Assembly (NCBI GenBank): GCA_965227295.1
Contig: OZ245742.1
Span: 3,904,001 to 3,968,000, forward strand
Source: Leptonemataceae bacterium
Lineage (GTDB): Bacteria; Spirochaetota; Leptospiria; Leptospirales; Leptonemataceae
Length of the DNA: 64,000 nt
Reading direction: 5' to 3'
Made by a program: the position numbers and the translations under genes. Positions 4,442-63,893 of the stretch are shown here, piece after piece. The first letter of the stretch is position 1. Every line of letters starts with the position of its first letter. Under the pieces are notes generated by a model that ran no database searches, had not been told where the DNA came from, and was given only the letters and a program-made list of their open reading frames with translations.

Positions 4442-4478
4442 AATGGTATCTCAACGTTCGTGTGTTTTCAACTCTTCC

Positions 4479-4588
4479 GCGTTAGCGATCCGTAGGGTGG
4501 CGCGCAGCGCCAGTCTCGCCGTCAGGCGAGACCGCAGCGAAGCGGAGCCCGGAGGAGCGCGACCCGAGCGAAGCGAGGGGAACGCCCA
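4479..4588 (-). repeat. Multi-hairpin dispersed element, copy A
   Basis: Reverse complement reads TGGGCGTT...GGGCTCCGCTTCGCTGCGGTC...ACCCT...ATCGCTAACGC, the same architecture as five other copies. Confidence 0.9.
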
Positions 4589-4659
4589 TATAAGCATGCA
4601 TTGATTCTACATTAGCAGCGAAAATTTTTACGGGCCACATAGTCTGTTCCGATCTTTTT

Positions 4660-4770
4660 TGGGCGCCCCCGCCGCTGTGCGGCGGTCGGGCTGCTACGGG
4701 CTCCGCTTCGCTGTGGTCCTCCGCGCTTCGCGCTCCGGACTCGCTTCGCGACCCTCCGCATCCCTGGCGC
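4660..4770 (+). repeat. Multi-hairpin dispersed element, copy B (inverted relative to copy A)
   Basis: TGGGCGCC...GTCGGGCT...GGGCTCCGCTTCGC...GACT...ACCCT...ATCCCTGGCGC. Confidence 0.9.
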
Positions 4771-8695: not shown

Positions 8696-8718
8696 AGACC
8701 GGGTATGTTCGTCTCTTC

Positions 8719-8839
8719 GCGTTAGCGATTGGAGGGGTGGCCCGAAGGGCCAGTCTCAGACGCGCAGCGGCTGAGACCGCAGCGAAGCGGAGCCCCGGAA
8801 AGCGCGACCCGGAGCGCGAAGCGCGAAGGGGAACGCCCA
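8719..8839 (-). repeat. Multi-hairpin dispersed element, copy D
   Basis: Reverse complement is closely similar to copy F (62147-62262), with compensatory changes in the stems. Confidence 0.92.
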
Positions 8840-8881
8840 AAAGAAAGACACTTCATATTTCTCAGGAGGATTATATTGTTC

Positions 8882-57823: not shown

Positions 57824-58013
57824 AATAGGTAATGGTAGAATTTTTCAGCAGGGATGTCTGTCCAGTGAAATGGGCGGGCGGATGGGTGTTCCGTTGCCTG
57901 AAAAATAGGCAGATTGCGGTTAGAAGGCAAGGGGATTGGCTCCGAGGACGCCGAGCGGAAGATGGGGAGGGTGGCGAATTTTGCACGCGCGCGTGCGAAA
58001 TTGGGCGAGTGGG

Positions 58014-58568
58014 TTATGGGGTGGCGAAGATGTCGGCGATGTCTACGGCGAGCTCCGGCAATACGGTCGATTCGATCAACCCACGCTCGCGCAATTCCCG
58101 GGCTGCTTTGAATTGCCCGTCTTGCAATCGCAGAATCCGCAGCGTTCGTTCCGCGGGATCGACGATCCAGTACTCGCGCACGCCGTACTGCTCGTAGCGA
58201 GCCTGTTTCTTTCCGAGATCGTAGTGCGCATTCGATGGCGATAGCACCTCAACCACCAGGTCCGGCGCGCCCTCGATCTTGACCGCGCCGATGATGCTCC
58301 GGCGTTCTTCAGAAATAAAAATCACGTCCGGCTGGTAGGTGTTCGTCTCGGAGAGATATACGTCGATGGGAGAGATGAATACGTCTCCGCCGCCGACCTC
58401 CTTCAGGTGGGCCTTGATCTGCCAGTAGATTTCTCCGGCAATGCGTTGATGATGCGGCGTGGGCGAGGGACTCATAACCAGATCTCCGTCGATGAGCTGA
58501 TATGCCGCGCCGTCATCTAATCGAGCGTAGTCTGCATAAGTCCGGGGTGTCTTCGTTTCCGGCGGCAT
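58014..58568 (-). CDS. Uma2 family (DUF820) putative endonuclease
   Basis: YQLIDG...SPSP..HQ, QPD, GAPDLVVEVLSPS...D...K and GVREYWIVDP motifs. Confidence 0.93.
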   Translation of the reverse strand: MPPETKTPRTYADYARLDDGAAYQLIDGDLVMSPSPTPHHQRIAGEIYWQIKAHLKEVGGGDVFISPIDVYLSETNTYQPDVIFISEERRSIIGAVKIEGAPDLVVEVLSPSNAHYDLGKKQARYEQYGVREYWIVDPAERTLRILRLQDGQFKAARELRERGLIESTVLPELAVDIADIFATP

Positions 58569-58706
58569 GGCTGCATTGTAGCACAGGGGCGAACCGAGTC
58601 AAGCCAGGTGGTCGCACTAAATACAAAAATTCCCCATCGCACCGTCGAAAAAGTGTACACCAAAATGTCATGACAGCGTTCGCGCGATGCCCATGCTGTC
58701 GCCTGC

Positions 58707-59846
58707 ATGCACGCCTTTCTGTATGTGACCCTGCCGGCGATTTGCCTGCTCATTGTCTTCGCGGCCGGTGAACTCGCGGTTCGTAACATACGTCGGCAAA
58801 ACGTCTGGCTTGCGCTGATCTTCCTTGCCTACGCCCTCGTATTGCTGCGCGCCTTTCTATTGTTCTCCGGCTGGATGCCGGCGGTACCTCTGTTGTACGA
58901 ATCCACGCTGCCGGTAAATTTCTGGATCGGCCCGCTGATCTACATCTATCTGCGCGAGGCTTTGGGTTTGCATCGCGCCGCGCATTCATCGCTGACGAAT
59001 CTGCGTGAAATCCTGCCGCACTTCGTTCCCGGCGTGCTGGTCTTCGTGTTGACGATCCCCAACGTGATGCAGCCCGGCGCGAGTACGATCGAACGCATCG
59101 CCGTTGCCGGGGCGTTCTTTGACGGCGCGGCACATGGTTTGTTTTCGGATCCGTACCTGCTCCTGACCCCGCTCGCGCTCATCCATGTTGCGATCTACCT
59201 GGCCTTGCTCGTGCGTTCGATGCTACTGCTGTTGAATCTGGAAACGCTGCGCCGCCAGGCAACGGTGCGCGCCTTTCTGTCCATGACCGCCCTGGCATTG
59301 ATCAGCACGGGCTGCGCCTTCGCGGGCATACTCTTCGCGCAACGAGAGCTGGTGGAGTTCGCCATCGGTCTGCTCGCGCTGGTGGTGCCGTTGCTGTATG
59401 TTTATCAGAAGCGCTATCCGGATCTCTTTGACGTGCTGGAGGGGCTCCTGCGTACGGAGCGCGAAAAGCGGGCGCGCTATCTGCAATCGCAGTTGGCCGG
59501 CGTGGATCTGACGAAACTGGAGCGACGGCTGACGGAGTTGATGGATGCGGAACACGTGTATCGCCGGGACGATCTCACGCTGCCGGCTCTCGCGGAGTTG
59601 CTGGATACGACGCCGCATCGATTGTCGGAGTACCTGAACAGGATCCGGCAGATGAGCTTCTCCGAGTACGTGAATCGCCGTCGGGTGCAGGCGGCCCAGG
59701 TCCTGCTCCTGGCGGAGCGGGATCGCACCGTGCTCTCGATTGCGTTCGAGGTCGGCTTCAATTCCAAATCCGCTTTTAACAAAGCTTTCGTTCGATTCAC
59801 GGGAGACAACCCGGCGCAGTTCCGAAACCAGGGAGTGAATTCATGA
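58707..59846 (+). CDS. Membrane-anchored AraC family transcriptional regulator
   Basis: TM region; SFSEYVN.RRV..A and IAFEVGFNSKSAFN.AF HTH. Confidence 0.92.
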   Translation: MHAFLYVTLPAICLLIVFAAGELAVRNIRRQNVWLALIFLAYALVLLRAFLLFSGWMPAVPLLYESTLPVNFWIGPLIYIYLREALGLHRAAHSSLTNLREILPHFVPGVLVFVLTIPNVMQPGASTIERIAVAGAFFDGAAHGLFSDPYLLLTPLALIHVAIYLALLVRSMLLLLNLETLRRQATVRAFLSMTALALISTGCAFAGILFAQRELVEFAIGLLALVVPLLYVYQKRYPDLFDVLEGLLRTEREKRARYLQSQLAGVDLTKLERRLTELMDAEHVYRRDDLTLPALAELLDTTPHRLSEYLNRIRQMSFSEYVNRRRVQAAQVLLLAERDRTVLSIAFEVGFNSKSAFNKAFVRFTGDNPAQFRNQGVNS

Positions 59847-59920
59847 GGCGCGCGCAATTTTTTTGGGCTCACTTTATAAGTCCGGTCGATCGAGCCGGAC
59901 GAAGCCGTTAAGATATCGTC

Positions 59921-60322
59921 ATGAAAACAGCCATTCGCATTCTCACGGTCGATTCCCTGGCCGGCCTGGCAGTGGGCGTCCTGACCCTGGCGCTTACGCC
60001 GTTGCTCACCGGGCCGTTCTTTCAGTGGCCGATCGAATACGTCTTTTTCATCGGCGGGGCCAACGTCCTGTACGGTTGCTACTCCGGTCTGCTGGTGTTG
60101 AGCCGGCGTCGCCTCGGTCGCGTCCCGGTGGCCGGCGTAATTCTGTTGATCATCGCCAACAGCGTCTGGGCCGGGCAGTGCTTCGCGCAGATCTGGTGGC
60201 TGTCCCACGGTAAACCGCCGATTCTGCTGCTCGTGCACATGGGCCTGGAGGCGCTGTTCGTGCTCGGCCTGGCGTTCGTTGAGGCACGGGATGTACTGCC
60301 GGCGGTGGGCGAGCGGAACTGA
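59921..60322 (+). CDS. Small four-TM hypothetical membrane protein
   Basis: 133 aa; hydrophobic; ANVLYGCYS, IIANSVW and EALFV.GLA.VE motifs. Confidence 0.75.
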   Translation: MKTAIRILTVDSLAGLAVGVLTLALTPLLTGPFFQWPIEYVFFIGGANVLYGCYSGLLVLSRRRLGRVPVAGVILLIIANSVWAGQCFAQIWWLSHGKPPILLLVHMGLEALFVLGLAFVEARDVLPAVGERN

Positions 60323-60382
60323 TTCGCCGGATCCGCTAAAAATTCTCGACGCTATCGCGGCCAGACAGGACACCCGAATTCC

Positions 60383-60841
60383 ATGAAGGTCGTGCGCCGT
60401 GTGCTGTTGATCCTTGTGCTGACCCCGCTGCTGTTGTTCGGCGGTTATCTCATCTACGCGCAAACGCTCATCGGCGTGCATCCGAAAACAGTCGCGTACT
60501 ATCAAAAATTATCCGGGGAACTCCGTCGTCGCAGGCACTCGCCGAACTACTTCATCTTAACCACGATCCGCCCGCGTTGGTTGAACGAGCTGCTGCGTCC
60601 TTTCGGCGCGGCACCGTTCAGCCGGCACGTGCACGCGGAAGCCGTGGACCTCATCGTCCTGGATGTGAACGGCGACTGGTCGGCCGATGCGAAAGACGTC
60701 GACATCGTCTACGATGTTTTGAATCGCGTGATCGTGCGCGACGGCGGCGGGGTGGGGACCTACAAGGGCGAGCCCTTATTTTTGCAATACCAGATGATTC
60801 ACTTCGATTGCCGCGGGCATCGGGCGCGGTGGCACCGCTGA
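60383..60841 (+). CDS. Peptidase M15-like (D-Ala-D-Ala/Hedgehog fold) protein with an N-terminal membrane anchor
   Basis: R...N...GAA..SRH-x6-D and GVGTY...IHFDCRG zinc-ligand pattern. Confidence 0.75.
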   Translation: MKVVRRVLLILVLTPLLLFGGYLIYAQTLIGVHPKTVAYYQKLSGELRRRRHSPNYFILTTIRPRWLNELLRPFGAAPFSRHVHAEAVDLIVLDVNGDWSADAKDVDIVYDVLNRVIVRDGGGVGTYKGEPLFLQYQMIHFDCRGHRARWHR

Positions 60842-60856
60842 GGCCCGCGGCAACGT

Positions 60857-61867
60857 TCAAATTATCTTCGTCTGTTCGATGAACCAACCACGCGCGGCGG
60901 TGGTGACGGCTTTCTGGACCGTCTTCCATTCGAGGCCGCTCGCTTCGAGTTCGGCGCCCGATTCTTTCTGAACGTCCTGTGTGAAGGCAGCCAGAAAACG
61001 ACCGGTGTTGCGCGGATCGTAGACCGCATCGCAGCTTTCCGTCGCGATCTGTTCGAGGCGGTTCGGCGTGACGAACAAGTCCACGAACTCAGCGATGTTG
61101 CGCGCCGTTTCCGGATCCACCGTCGCCGGCGCTTTGCTGCGTACGACCTGATGTTTCTCGCCCTTGGCCTTGAACATGTACTGCCCAAGCATCTCGCGAT
61201 CGATGGTTTGCGCATCGCCGGCGAGGCCGACCGGAAAATAGACCAGGCCTTCGCCGGTTCCTGCAACACCGAAGCGTGCTTTCACAAACGGATCGCATGC
61301 TTCCACGGCGCTCACGCGGGCGTTGATGGCGTCCACGGCCGCGCGCATTTGACCTGGATTCGTCCAGTCGATGTCCACGTCGGGTTCGTCCCACGGCAGG
61401 ATGTGTACTCCCGGAAGTGGACCGAGGCGTTCTGCGATCCACTCCGGTCCCATGTAGACGTCTTCGCCGATTTGTATGGAAAAGACCGCGAAGATTTTTT
61501 CGGGAATGTCGCAGATGGCAGCGCCTTTCTGGATTCCCGGCCCGCACCATTCGCCGAAGACCGTCATCGTCACACCGGTGGGAACCGTGGCCGCGAGCGT
61601 CTGCCAGCCGGCGTTGTTTTCCTGAAGCCACCGCGCGAAACCCGCGTTGTCGTTTTCGACGGACAGTACTGACGTGCGGCTCTGGGGCGAGACCACGCCG
61701 TCGCACAGGCTGATGCCCGCGTTCGTCCCGTGGAGTTTTACTTTCGGCCGGTAGCGGATCGGACCGTTGTGTGCGACCGTGGTCGGTCCCACGCGTTCCG
61801 CGTAGATCTCCACCGCTCGCCGCACATGGCTGAAGCTCTCAATCGACGGCCATTTGATGTGATTCAT
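60857..61867 (-). CDS. ATP-dependent RNA ligase family protein (Rnl2-like)
   Basis: Motif I KLHGTN, QSR, motif III FGEWCG.GIQKG, motif IV GEGLV and motif V FKAK; AGAGGA RBS before the ATG at 61867. Confidence 0.88.
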   Translation of the reverse strand: MNHIKWPSIESFSHVRRAVEIYAERVGPTTVAHNGPIRYRPKVKLHGTNAGISLCDGVVSPQSRTSVLSVENDNAGFARWLQENNAGWQTLAATVPTGVTMTVFGEWCGPGIQKGAAICDIPEKIFAVFSIQIGEDVYMGPEWIAERLGPLPGVHILPWDEPDVDIDWTNPGQMRAAVDAINARVSAVEACDPFVKARFGVAGTGEGLVYFPVGLAGDAQTIDREMLGQYMFKAKGEKHQVVRSKAPATVDPETARNIAEFVDLFVTPNRLEQIATESCDAVYDPRNTGRFLAAFTQDVQKESGAELEASGLEWKTVQKAVTTAARGWFIEQTKII

Positions 61868-61896
61868 GTTTCGTTCCTCTAACTTGATGGGTACGC

Positions 61897-61935
61897 AAAA
61901 AGGGCGGGCCTCCGTTCTTCCGGATGGACCCGCCC
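61897..61935 (-). terminator. Intrinsic terminator in the 5' leader of the RNA ligase gene
   Basis: Minus strand GGGCGGGTC-ca-TCCG-gaagaa-CGGA-GGCCCGCCC-TTTTT, ending about 30 nt before the ligase ATG. Confidence 0.8.
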
Positions 61936-61964
61936 CCTGCACGTCTTCCCAACGATGCGTACGG

Positions 61965-62036
61965 TCAGGGCCCGTCCCGGCTCCCCGTTACCCATGCGGC
62001 GCAAGGCCGTGCGTCGTTGTAAAGATGCGTATTCAT
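61965..62036 (-). CDS. Putative leader peptide MNTHLYNDARPCAAWVTGSRDGP
   Basis: 23-codon ORF whose TGA lies about 30 nt before the leader terminator; no clear SD; below the ORF-track size cutoff. Confidence 0.5.
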   Translation of the reverse strand: MNTHLYNDARPCAAWVTGSRDGP

Positions 62037-62146
62037 TGCGTGTGTTGGATGGATTGGACGAAGGAAAGTTGCATTTTGTTACGTTTTTCAGGTGTTGGCG
62101 GTCCGTAAAATGCAAATCACTAATTGAATATAAAATTATATTAGTT

Positions 62147-62262
62147 TGGGCGTTCCCCTCCGCTTCGCTCCGGGTCGGGCTTTCCGGGGCTCCGCTTCGC
62201 TGCGGTCTCAGCCGAAGACGGCTGAGACTGGGCCTTCGGCCCACCCCTCCAATCCCTAACGC
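62147..62262 (+). repeat. Multi-hairpin dispersed element, copy F
   Basis: TGGGCGTT...GTCGGGCTTTCCGGGGCTCCGCTTCGCTGCGGTCTCAG...CTGAGACTGGGCCTTCGGCCCACCCCTCCAATCCCTAACGC. Confidence 0.92.
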
Positions 62263-62314
62263 AAGAATTGAGAGTTCGCGGCCGTCGTATTCTTTCCCAC
62301 ATCCTGCAAAAAAC

Positions 62315-62342
62315 TTGACGCATGCGTCACTTTTTTTAAGAT
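62315..62342 (+). promoter_or_regulatory. Candidate sigma-70 promoter with an overlapping palindromic operator
   Basis: TTGACG-N16-TAAGAT; perfect palindrome TGACGCATGCGTCA at 62316-62329; 18 bp before the monooxygenase ATG. Confidence 0.6.
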
Positions 62343-62360
62343 GCGGCCCTGAGGCCCTCC

Positions 62361-63893
62361 ATGAACCAGAGCAAACGCAACCCGTCCGTCGTGATCGTGG
62401 GAGCCGGTATGACCGGCATCCTCATGGCCATTCGCATGCGCGAGGCCGGCATTCACGACGTCGTCATCCTGGAAAAAAAAGAAAAGATCGGCGGGACCTG
62501 GCGAGAGAACACCTATCCCGGCATCGCCTGCGACGTGCCCGCGCATTATTATACCTATCGCTTCGAACTGAACCCGCACTGGTCGAACTTCTTTGCGCCG
62601 GGCCGTGAGATTCAGCAGTACTTCGAAGGCGTCGTTGAGAAGTACGGCCTGCATGAGATCATTCATTTGAACGAAGCGGTGACGGCCGCATCTTATAAAG
62701 ACGGGAAGTGGACCGTGAAGACGAGTCAGCGCAAGACCTACGTCGCCGACTTCTTTATCGCGGCGACGGGCATTCTGCATCATCCGGCCATGCCGAACCT
62801 CAAAGGCCTGCAAACTTTCGGCGGGCCCATGTTTCACACGGCGGAGTGGAACCACGACGTGCAGTTCGGTCCCGGCGTGCGGGTGGGGGTGATCGGCAAC
62901 GGCTCCACGGCAGCGCAGTGCGTGCCGGAACTCGTGAACAGCGGGGCGGAGGTTACGGTATTCATGCGCACGCCGCAGTGGATCGCGTATTTTCCGGACT
63001 TTCGTTATCCGCAATGGTTCAAAAATTGGGTGCGTCGATCAAGAATGTTGCTGGCGTTGCAGCGCCGGATCGGTCGCTATACGATGCTCTTTTTTAACGC
63101 GGCGACGGCCGGCGTTATGCCTTACAAGAAACTCGTGGAATGGATCTGTAAACTCAGTCTGCGCTTTGGTGTTAAGGATCGCGAGTTGCGCGAACGACTG
63201 CGGCCGGACTATCGTGTCGGTTGCAAGCGCGTGGTCATCAACGCCACGTTTTTCCCGGCCATCCAGAAAGAGAACGCGCACATCGTCCAGACCGGCATCG
63301 ATCGGGTTACGAAGCAGGGCATTGTTACGAAAGACGGCAAGCTGCACGAGCTGGACGTGCTCGTATGTTCCACGGGCTTTCATCCGTTCTACTTTATGCG
63401 TCCCATGAACCTGAAGGGCCGCGGCGGCCTTTCCGTCGATACGGCCTGGAAAAAACGCATCGATGTTTACAACTCGGTGCTGTGTCCGCAGTTTCCGAAC
63501 ATGTTTCTCATGCTCGGCCCGTACACGCCCATCAGTAATTTTTCGGTGATTGCCATGTCCGAGTGCCAGGCCGATTACATCATGCAGCTCATCGAGTTGT
63601 GGCGCGAGCGTGTCTACGATGCGGTCGAGCCGAAAGTCGAAGCGGTGGAGCGCTTTCGCGAAAAAGTGCGCCAGGGTCTCGCTGGTTCGGCCTGGGCGAG
63701 TGGTTGCAGTTCGTGGTACTTAAGCGATAGCGGTGAGCCTCAGGTGTGGCCGTTTACGTGGCGCAAGTACGAACAAGAGTTGGCGCGACCGAAGTTAGAG
63801 GACCTGGTGTTGGAGAAGATCCAGGCGAAGCCGCCGCGTAAGAAGGCGGCTTCATCAAAATCGAAGCGGAAGCGGGTGGCCGTGGCGGGGTAG
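62361..63893 (+). CDS. Flavin-containing monooxygenase (Baeyer-Villiger type)
   Basis: GAGMTG, GGTWRENTYPG..CD, FGGPMFHTAEW (FxGxxxHxxxW), GNGSTA and STGF motifs. Confidence 0.94.
   Translation: MNQSKRNPSVVIVGAGMTGILMAIRMREAGIHDVVILEKKEKIGGTWRENTYPGIACDVPAHYYTYRFELNPHWSNFFAPGREIQQYFEGVVEKYGLHEIIHLNEAVTAASYKDGKWTVKTSQRKTYVADFFIAATGILHHPAMPNLKGLQTFGGPMFHTAEWNHDVQFGPGVRVGVIGNGSTAAQCVPELVNSGAEVTVFMRTPQWIAYFPDFRYPQWFKNWVRRSRMLLALQRRIGRYTMLFFNAATAGVMPYKKLVEWICKLSLRFGVKDRELRERLRPDYRVGCKRVVINATFFPAIQKENAHIVQTGIDRVTKQGIVTKDGKLHELDVLVCSTGFHPFYFMRPMNLKGRGGLSVDTAWKKRIDVYNSVLCPQFPNMFLMLGPYTPISNFSVIAMSECQADYIMQLIELWRERVYDAVEPKVEAVERFREKVRQGLAGSAWASGCSSWYLSDSGEPQVWPFTWRKYEQELARPKLEDLVLEKIQAKPPRKKAASSKSKRKRVAVAG

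Follow-up and report, generated by a model that had tools for sequence, protein, structure and literature searches.

Transcription attenuators in which the ribosome decides whether a downstream gene is transcribed have been described in several bacteria. In Pseudomonas aeruginosa, the leader open reading frame (ORF) PA5471.1 is followed by predicted terminators and by armZ (PA5471), and a review words as 'proposed' a model in which impaired or stalled ribosomes restructure the RNA and thereby cause read-through (PMC12057347). The rli80 leader of hflXr (lmo0762) from Listeria monocytogenes is presented as a ribosome-dependent attenuator with a small ORF and alternative folds that is induced by ribosome pausing (PMC6310831). 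Likewise, the vmlR leader of Bacillus subtilis is described as a ribosome-dependent transcription attenuator (PMC9226507). Short leaderless ORFs also act in mycobacterial attenuators, where upstream ORFs (uORFs) encoding polycysteine sense cysteine through runs of Cys codons (bioRxiv 10.1101/834739). The locus compared here with these systems lies in a window of 64,000 nucleotides (nt), i.e. the whole stretch of DNA that was analysed, from a Leptonemataceae bacterium (Spirochaetota; assembly GCA_965227295.1, contig OZ245742.1, positions 3,904,001 to 3,968,000), in which a minus-strand gene (60857..61867) encodes a 336-aa Rnl2-like ATP-dependent RNA ligase. On balance, and by a modest preference, the ~170 nt preceding this gene are best explained as a ribosome-coupled transcription attenuator that would allow transcription of the ligase gene when translation of a uORF lags; the ligase is probably made only when protein synthesis falters. 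The mechanism itself is of a known kind and what is added is its attachment to an uncharacterised ligase subfamily; full-text literature searches found no leader of this kind for an Rnl2-like ligase.

Read on the minus strand, the leader holds a uORF of 23 sense codons (62036-61965, with ATG at 62036-62034 and TGA at 61967-61965; peptide MNTHLYNDARPCAAWVTGSRDGP). Its stop is separated by 29 nt from the core of an intrinsic-terminator hairpin (61935-61902), which is followed by a T5 tract (61901-61897) and has an extended foot formed by the pairing of 61944-61940 with 61897-61893. The last T of the terminator is again 29 nt from the ligase ATG at 61867, and a Shine-Dalgarno-like GAGGA (61875..61879) lies 7 nt before this ATG. 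The next gene upstream, encoding a flavin monooxygenase (62361+), is divergent from the ligase gene; the hairpin therefore terminates no upstream protein gene and, given the short gap that follows it, ligase transcription must cross it. Neither the sequence nor a sigma-70 scan reveals any promoter-like site between the hairpin and the ligase ATG, the gap being too short. An earlier note on this DNA, made from its letters alone, had placed the uORF, the terminator with its U5 tract, the ribosome-binding site and the ligase ATG on the minus strand exactly where they are found, had recognised the layout of a terminator-containing leader and had remarked that no amino acid occurs as a run in the uORF, and indeed regulatory codons are absent. 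Its observation is thus confirmed, whereas its interpretation, an attenuator switched on by translation stress, is supported in part only.

The hairpin itself exceeds chance. The fold of 61945-61890 reaches -34.1 kcal/mol for a shuffle mean of -20.1 (z -4.97), none of 200 shuffles being as stable; the 201-nt leader taken as a whole shows no exceptional stability (z -1.58, with 16 of 200 shuffles equal or better). Hairpins followed by a T tail were then sought genome-wide in 2560 intergenic regions, 683 of them divergent, using our own crude gene calls (4511 genes, long ORFs being picked by GC3-GC2, the GC content of third minus second codon positions). At a folding free energy (dG) <= -22, 42 sites lie after gene 3' ends and are correctly oriented, tandem regions hold 7 antisense sites and divergent regions 12; at dG <= -25, the 24 sites found genome-wide are distributed as 15, 5 and 4, respectively. 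Strong hairpin sites of this genome are mostly real terminators, because 15 of these 24 (and 42 sites at dG <= -22) follow gene 3' ends; it is rare for such a site to lie in a divergent region and point into a gene. Among the 4 divergent-region sites at dG <= -25 is the ligase leader.

The influence of a translating ribosome on this hairpin was modelled by partition function on a transcript ended at the hairpin loop, along whose uORF a 28-nt ribosome footprint was stepped; the readout was the difference, early minus late ribosome, in the probability of the terminator 5' arm being engaged in upstream pairing. Two segments of the uORF are concerned: an anti-antiterminator strand in codons 2-8 (62014..62031) and an antiterminator strand that comprises the final codons, the stop and the next 7 nt (61958..61978), whose predicted partner, 61943-61926, includes the terminator foot and 5' arm. 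In the constrained fold without ribosome, codons 2-8 pair with the region following the stop (predicted folds as a whole involve 61955-61940, and this one pairs 62019-62014 with 61955-61950), the antiterminator strand is folded on itself and the terminator arm is free. With an early ribosome, three helices (61977-61974:61929-61926, 61971-61967:61936-61932 and 61962-61958:61943-61939) occupy the terminator foot and 5' arm; with a late one, the arm is free again. In the model, the antiterminator pairing of the window is thus confined to ribosome positions that mask the first half of the uORF, and it disappears once the ribosome comes within ~8 codons of the stop. Both alternative pairings put forward in the earlier note were recovered in constrained folds, but the antiterminator drawn there was incomplete, since pairing of the foot alone leaves the GC core of the hairpin intact; a switch is plausible because the helices joining 61977-61967 to 61936-61926 invade the terminator 5' arm. 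A long-range helix (62104-62097 with 61931-61926), which would close a riboswitch-like domain, appeared in one fold and was set aside, as relatives lack a counterpart.

From these folds, the following course of events can be proposed. Transcription would start somewhere upstream of 62036. A ribosome that keeps pace with the polymerase would be in the last ~8 codons of the uORF while the terminator emerges and would cover 61978-61958; with the antiterminator strand covered, the hairpin 61935-61902 and its U5 tract would form and the ligase gene would not be transcribed. A ribosome lagging or stalled in the first two thirds of the uORF would instead melt the helix between 62031-62014 and 61955-61940. 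The freed antiterminator strand would then pair with 61943-61926, the polymerase would read through and the Rnl2-like ligase would be made. In the absence of any ribosome, the model predicts termination in the window and read-through in six of the eight related leaders considered below. In this scheme, the uORF would be translated and termination would be conditional, and the cue would be a slowing of translation caused by broken tRNA, ribotoxins, antibiotics or starvation.

This scheme would share with trpL-type attenuators the four-segment logic of 1:2, 2:3 and 3:4 pairings, and the model of the window gives the three classical states. It differs from them in the lack of tandem regulatory codons and of a downstream biosynthetic operon, and in the predicted read-through of most related leaders when no ribosome is present. 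As in the armZ leader, impaired ribosomes would lead to read-through into a gene that copes with damaged translation; armZ, however, encodes an efflux-pump anti-repressor and not an RNA ligase, belongs to a gammaproteobacterium and has an unrelated leader sequence. Similarly, in the hflXr and vmlR attenuators, pausing on a small ORF switches on a translation-rescue factor. Their leader peptides have drug-specific arrest motifs (RLR in rli80), none of which is common to the uORFs described here, and the genes that they regulate act on ribosomes and not on broken RNA.

The earlier note had advised comparison with homologous loci, and the same succession of uORF, antiterminator and terminator was found before ligase genes of three phyla. 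In eight homologous leaders (Leptospirales-like, Myxococcota and Acidobacteriota, the window included), an ATG-initiated uORF stops 27-37 nt before a strong hairpin, and the best partner of the terminator 5' arm lies beneath a ribosome completing the uORF. The two other copies from the order, L010 and L011, encode proteins 60% and 58% identical to the ligase of the window and carry, on the same strand as the ligase gene, a hairpin with a T-run (z -6.84 and -4.50; none of 200 shuffles in either case), located 82 nt and ~190 nt before the ligase ATG, respectively. The gene upstream is again divergent in L010; in L011, it is a tRNA-Gly gene with its own terminator. The uORFs of the window, L010 and L011 have 23, 22 and 30 codons and stop 29, 31 and 27 nt before the hairpin, and in all three loci the best complement of the terminator 5' arm overlaps the last codons of the respective uORF. 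Sequence similarity among these three leaders is limited to words of 7-9 nt at E >= 0.4. L011 also carries a ~26-nt direct repeat (1320-1345 and 1396-1421) between its leader hairpin and the ligase start.

Outside the order, ATG uORFs of 35 and 36 codons end 29 and 35 nt before the hairpin in L047, a fusion form from Myxococcota, and in L081 from Acidobacteriota, respectively. Order-level searches matched 13 of 73 genomes for relatives of L047 and covered 2 genomes in total around that of L081. The former search delineated a Myxococcota clade of tRNA_bind-ligase fusions (L047, L179, L180, the partial L181 and L182) that are 50-66% identical. A promoter-like block is kept in this clade (TTGACA-17-TATCCG in L047, L179 and L180; TTGACG-17-TAACCA in L182), and the ATG uORFs, of 35-47 codons, vary in sequence and length, start 8-20 nt after this block and end 27-37 nt before the hairpin. 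The hairpin (GAGCCACC..GGTGGCTC with a T-rich tail) is conserved, as is the end of the uORF, GGCTCCAC, which is complementary to the hairpin 5' foot and arm GTGGAGCC. More generally, inspection by eye finds a -10-like hexamer 7-20 nt before the uORF ATG in six of the eight leaders. These uORFs may be leaderless or nearly so, in which case no Shine-Dalgarno sequence would be needed. This putative trait recalls the mycobacterial polycysteine uORFs; the difference is that the mycobacterial uORFs sense cysteine through Cys runs and that the promoters considered here are putative.

The eight uORF peptides yielded no established shared motif. Seven of them (window, L010, L011, L047, L081, L179 and L182) have a Trp after Ala, Ser or Thr, then a Gly/Arg-rich tail; this is within expectation for GC-rich ORFs and is not claimed as a motif. 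The uORF of the window ends with Gly-Pro-UGA, which is a poor termination context.

When the ribosome-mask model was applied to the eight leaders, all of them switched. The terminator arm is paired at 0.5-0.97 with the ribosome in the first part of the uORF and at only 0.02-0.6 once the ribosome is within ~8 codons of the stop. The early-minus-late differences are 0.55, 0.90, 0.63, 0.31, 0.32, 0.50, 0.51 and 0.46, values that are reached in 0, 0, 1, 3, 4, 2, 0 and 1 of 60 cases, respectively, when the upstream part is shuffled, with shuffle means near 0. As a natural control, the same calculation was made on 40 ordinary gene-end terminators of this genome, located 10-45 nt after a real gene stop: the mean difference is -0.05 (sd 0.34), with 4 of 40 reaching 0.31 and 2 of 40 reaching 0.46.

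This control bears on a distinctly less probable explanation, namely that the terminator is constitutive. The hairpin would then terminate an independent short transcript, such as a small RNA or that of a tiny gene located between the repeat element and the ligase gene, or it would insulate a gene that was acquired horizontally and lies at the edge of a 4.5-kb insert; the ligase would be made by leak-through only and the complementarities would have arisen by chance. The setting has features that suit this explanation: the ligase gene is found beside a dispersed repeat and is carried by an insert that two congeneric genomes lack at this position, ~30 nt between stop and terminator is normal for genes (40 such cases in this genome), other divergent regions also have strong hairpins, and the three nearest loci have a common ancestry. 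The early-versus-late switch found in 8/8 leaders, as opposed to 4/40 natural terminators at the lowest leader value, speaks against it, as do the maintenance of the leader before the ligase gene in three phyla with differing neighbourhoods and the lack of space for a ligase promoter after the hairpin.

Several points weigh against the attenuator reading and concern, first, the leader of the window and the model itself. The folding model is an equilibrium and not a kinetic one, its 28-nt footprint is assumed, and the early and late ribosome positions were chosen after the data had been seen. No Shine-Dalgarno sequence was found when looked for in the sequence before the uORF; PA5471.1 has a conventional ribosome-binding site. 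The sigma-70 scan called no minus-strand promoter in the region, and the candidate promoter noticed by eye 9 nt before the uORF ATG (ATGCAA-17-CATCCA) agrees with the consensus at 5 of 12 positions. Among public sequencing runs, no RNA run is listed for the locus, which was met as DNA contigs in two runs of one study. Leaders of different clades share no sequence and their peptides cannot be aligned.

The distribution of the leader is a further point of the same sort. The wider family was surveyed at 77 unique genome loci and 69 metagenome loci, and the idea that a leader terminator is a trait of the whole family was rejected, hairpins occurring at 19/77 genome loci in forward orientation versus 17/77 in reverse. 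In the metagenome set, where the best identity found in a scan for closer relatives was 47%, any hairpin was found at 12/69 loci forward and 9/69 reverse, and a strong one at 1/69 versus 1/69. L125, which has no uORF, and L078, with GTG or TTG uORFs only, do not fit the layout. Leader-bearing genes occupy at least three places of a FastTree phylogeny of 155 ligase sequences (L081 and L182 were excluded by the length filter), but the three Leptospirales-like ligases cluster together (support 99), as do four of those from Myxococcota (96), so that only ~4 independent lineages are represented.

Other hairpins of the survey have different identities. Those of L022 and L089 were set aside, since they terminate genes that lie upstream in the same direction. 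L195, which is a 60% relative of L078, does not fit either: a near-perfect inverted repeat with ~40-nt arms, flanked by T and A runs, lies ~130-250 nt before its ligase start, in place of a uORF-hairpin leader. In a 64% relative of L078, L194, a 29-codon GTG uORF noticed by eye only ends ~28 nt before a GAGCCCCCTC..GAGGGGGCTC hairpin, which was not called by the scan because its tail is insufficiently T-rich.

The layout was also confronted with chance. Dinucleotide shuffling of the 180 nt upstream produces an ORF that starts with ATG, has 15 codons or more and stops 10-45 nt ahead of the hairpin in 320, 345 and 379 of 2000 sequences for the window, L010 and L011, respectively; the uORF alone is therefore within chance (16-19% of shuffles). 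The energy of the duplex between the arm and the antiterminator is no better than that of shuffles (402, 665 and 197 of 1000 reach it), and this duplex is unusual in its position only. Both results detract from the attenuator reading and would suit a coincidence, i.e. a strong hairpin and a chance ORF without joint function, which we nevertheless hold to be very improbable. When the positions of the uORF and of its complement to the arm are combined, only 101, 50 and 57 of 2000 shuffles do as well for the same three loci, under criteria which, to the detriment of this test, were set after the data had been seen. In addition, the layout recurs in other loci: with the uORF definition fixed on the first three, five of seven further leader-hairpin loci were found to possess such a uORF (97-521 of 2000 shuffles under the null), and the natural-terminator control does not switch.

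A conditional terminator decided by another factor is also unlikely, though it carries appreciable weight. In that explanation, the hairpin would be controlled by a small RNA, a ligand or an RNA-binding protein, which might be the ligase itself, and the uORF would be incidental to GC-rich DNA. Indeed, the leaders have a GC content of 66-68%, a composition that makes stop codons scarce and long ORFs likely, the uORF of the window lacks a Shine-Dalgarno sequence and is alone within chance, the uORF peptides are not conserved, and a position-specific complementarity does not need a ribosome per se. On the other hand, a search of 61500-62700 on both strands with 4227 Rfam families gave no match at E <= 10, and the absence of a common sequence or fold across clades disfavours a ligand aptamer or a fixed protein site. 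The stop of the uORF 27-37 nt before the hairpin in eight leaders unrelated in sequence, and the position of its ATG shortly after a -10-like hexamer (seen by eye) in most of them, are further arguments in favour of the ribosome as the deciding factor.

The assignment of the protein as an Rnl2-like ligase, already made in the earlier note, is borne out by several lines of evidence. It matches PF09414 (RNA_ligase) with 37.9 bits for a cut-off of 27, and T4 Rnl2 (chains 1s68/2hvq) with an E-value of 1e-4, its KLHGTN falling on the motif I lysine in that alignment; K44, H46, G47, N49, E106, K233 and K235 are invariant in 29 homologs. The AF2 model (predicted local distance difference test score of 90.4) is helical at residues 258-335, corresponding to a C-terminal domain as in T4 Rnl2. 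Its best Foldseek matches are full-length T4 Rnl2 (2hvr and 2hvq; E 1.7e-11, >360 columns), followed by trypanosome REL1 and Naegleria Rnl5; the template-modelling score to T4 Rnl2 is only 0.46 because the orientation of the domains differs. Thus, the protein shares with T4 Rnl2, its top match in sequence and fold, the KxHGTN motif I lysine and the combination of a nucleotidyltransferase and a helical C-terminal domain, but it is only 17-19% identical to it and scores 19.5 bits against the NCBIfam Rnl2 equivalog TIGR02307, far below the cut-off of 197.15. Because of this score, it is classified from its sequence as Rnl2-like, and not as an Rnl2 orthologue, within a separate uncharacterised bacterial subfamily. 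Of 7215 candidates, at least 1374 proteins belong to this subfamily at E <= 1e-10, and one of them (P0002) is 83% identical.

Many family members, chiefly cyanobacterial and myxobacterial, are fused to the tRNA-binding domain PF01588. In the fused forms (L014-L088 from cyanobacteria; L047, L078 and L081 from other phyla), the frame extends without a stop for 100-150 codons ahead of the ligase domain and PF01588 is N-terminal; no description of this fusion architecture was found. To judge from such fusions, the ligase may repair tRNA. The earlier note had called the ligase stand-alone, which holds for the locus, but an RtcB ligase is also encoded elsewhere in the same genome; a leader hairpin was looked for before this rtcB gene and none was found.

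A more specific version of the attenuator, to which we give little credence, would make the uORF a sensor of tRNA integrity: cleavage of tRNAs by an anticodon nuclease or ribotoxin would starve the ribosome early in the uORF, and formation of the antiterminator would lead to synthesis of a ligase that reseals tRNA. Five of the first eight codons of the uORF in the window (Asn, His, Tyr, Asn and Asp) are NAY codons, which are read by tRNAs of the queuosine family, the targets of colicin E5-type nucleases. The usual example of regulated RNA-repair enzymes is rtcBA under the control of RtcR, and there are few systems in which the bacterial cue for making such enzymes is understood. If a leader does read the pace of the ribosome here, the translation machinery would signal its own damage and switch on a ligase that probably mends tRNA. 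The leader also offers a way into the function of a ligase subfamily that is large and uncharacterised, and those from Myxococcota belong to culturable relatives.

The ligase gene was found in 3 of 156 genomes of the order, the present one included, and the two other copies have different neighbourhoods; it is an accessory gene that is mobile together with its own leader. In the window, both are part of an insert of ~4.5 kb (57824..62308) that separates carB from the monooxygenase gene; in two congeneric genomes (G001 and G002), which lack the insert at this site, these two genes are adjacent and divergent. Besides the ligase gene, the insert carries genes for a putative Uma2-family endonuclease (58014-58568, minus strand) and a membrane AraC-family regulator (58707-59846, plus strand), and two small plus-strand genes to which no family is assigned (59921-60322 and 60383-60841).

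At the edge of the insert, between the leader and the promoter region of the monooxygenase gene, lies a copy of a dispersed repeat of ~130-170 nt (62108..62285). When the intergenic DNA was used as query, its positions ~76-253 gave 55 matches in the same genome at E <= 10, the locus included, on both strands and with 72-96% identity; further copies in the window are at ~4468-4588, 4658-4718 and 8714-8841. The repeat contains a direct repeat of 16 nt (62158-62173 / 62190-62205) as well as an internal hairpin with perfect pairing (62205-62214 / 62219-62228), and it looks like a miniature inverted-repeat transposable element or a repetitive extragenic palindromic-like element. It is separated from the uORF by an AT-poor spacer of ~70 nt, which holds a 13-codon mini-ORF on the minus strand (62074-62033) with an ATG start. 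As its TGA overlaps the uORF ATG as ATGA, this mini-ORF might possibly feed ribosomes to the uORF. On the other side of the repeat, a 30-nt palindrome (62308-62337; AAAAAACTTGACGCA / TGCGTCACTTTTTTT) immediately precedes the monooxygenase gene, is conserved in both of the congeneric genomes and overlaps the sole sigma-70-like promoter call of the region; its probable role is that of an operator or of a bidirectional element.

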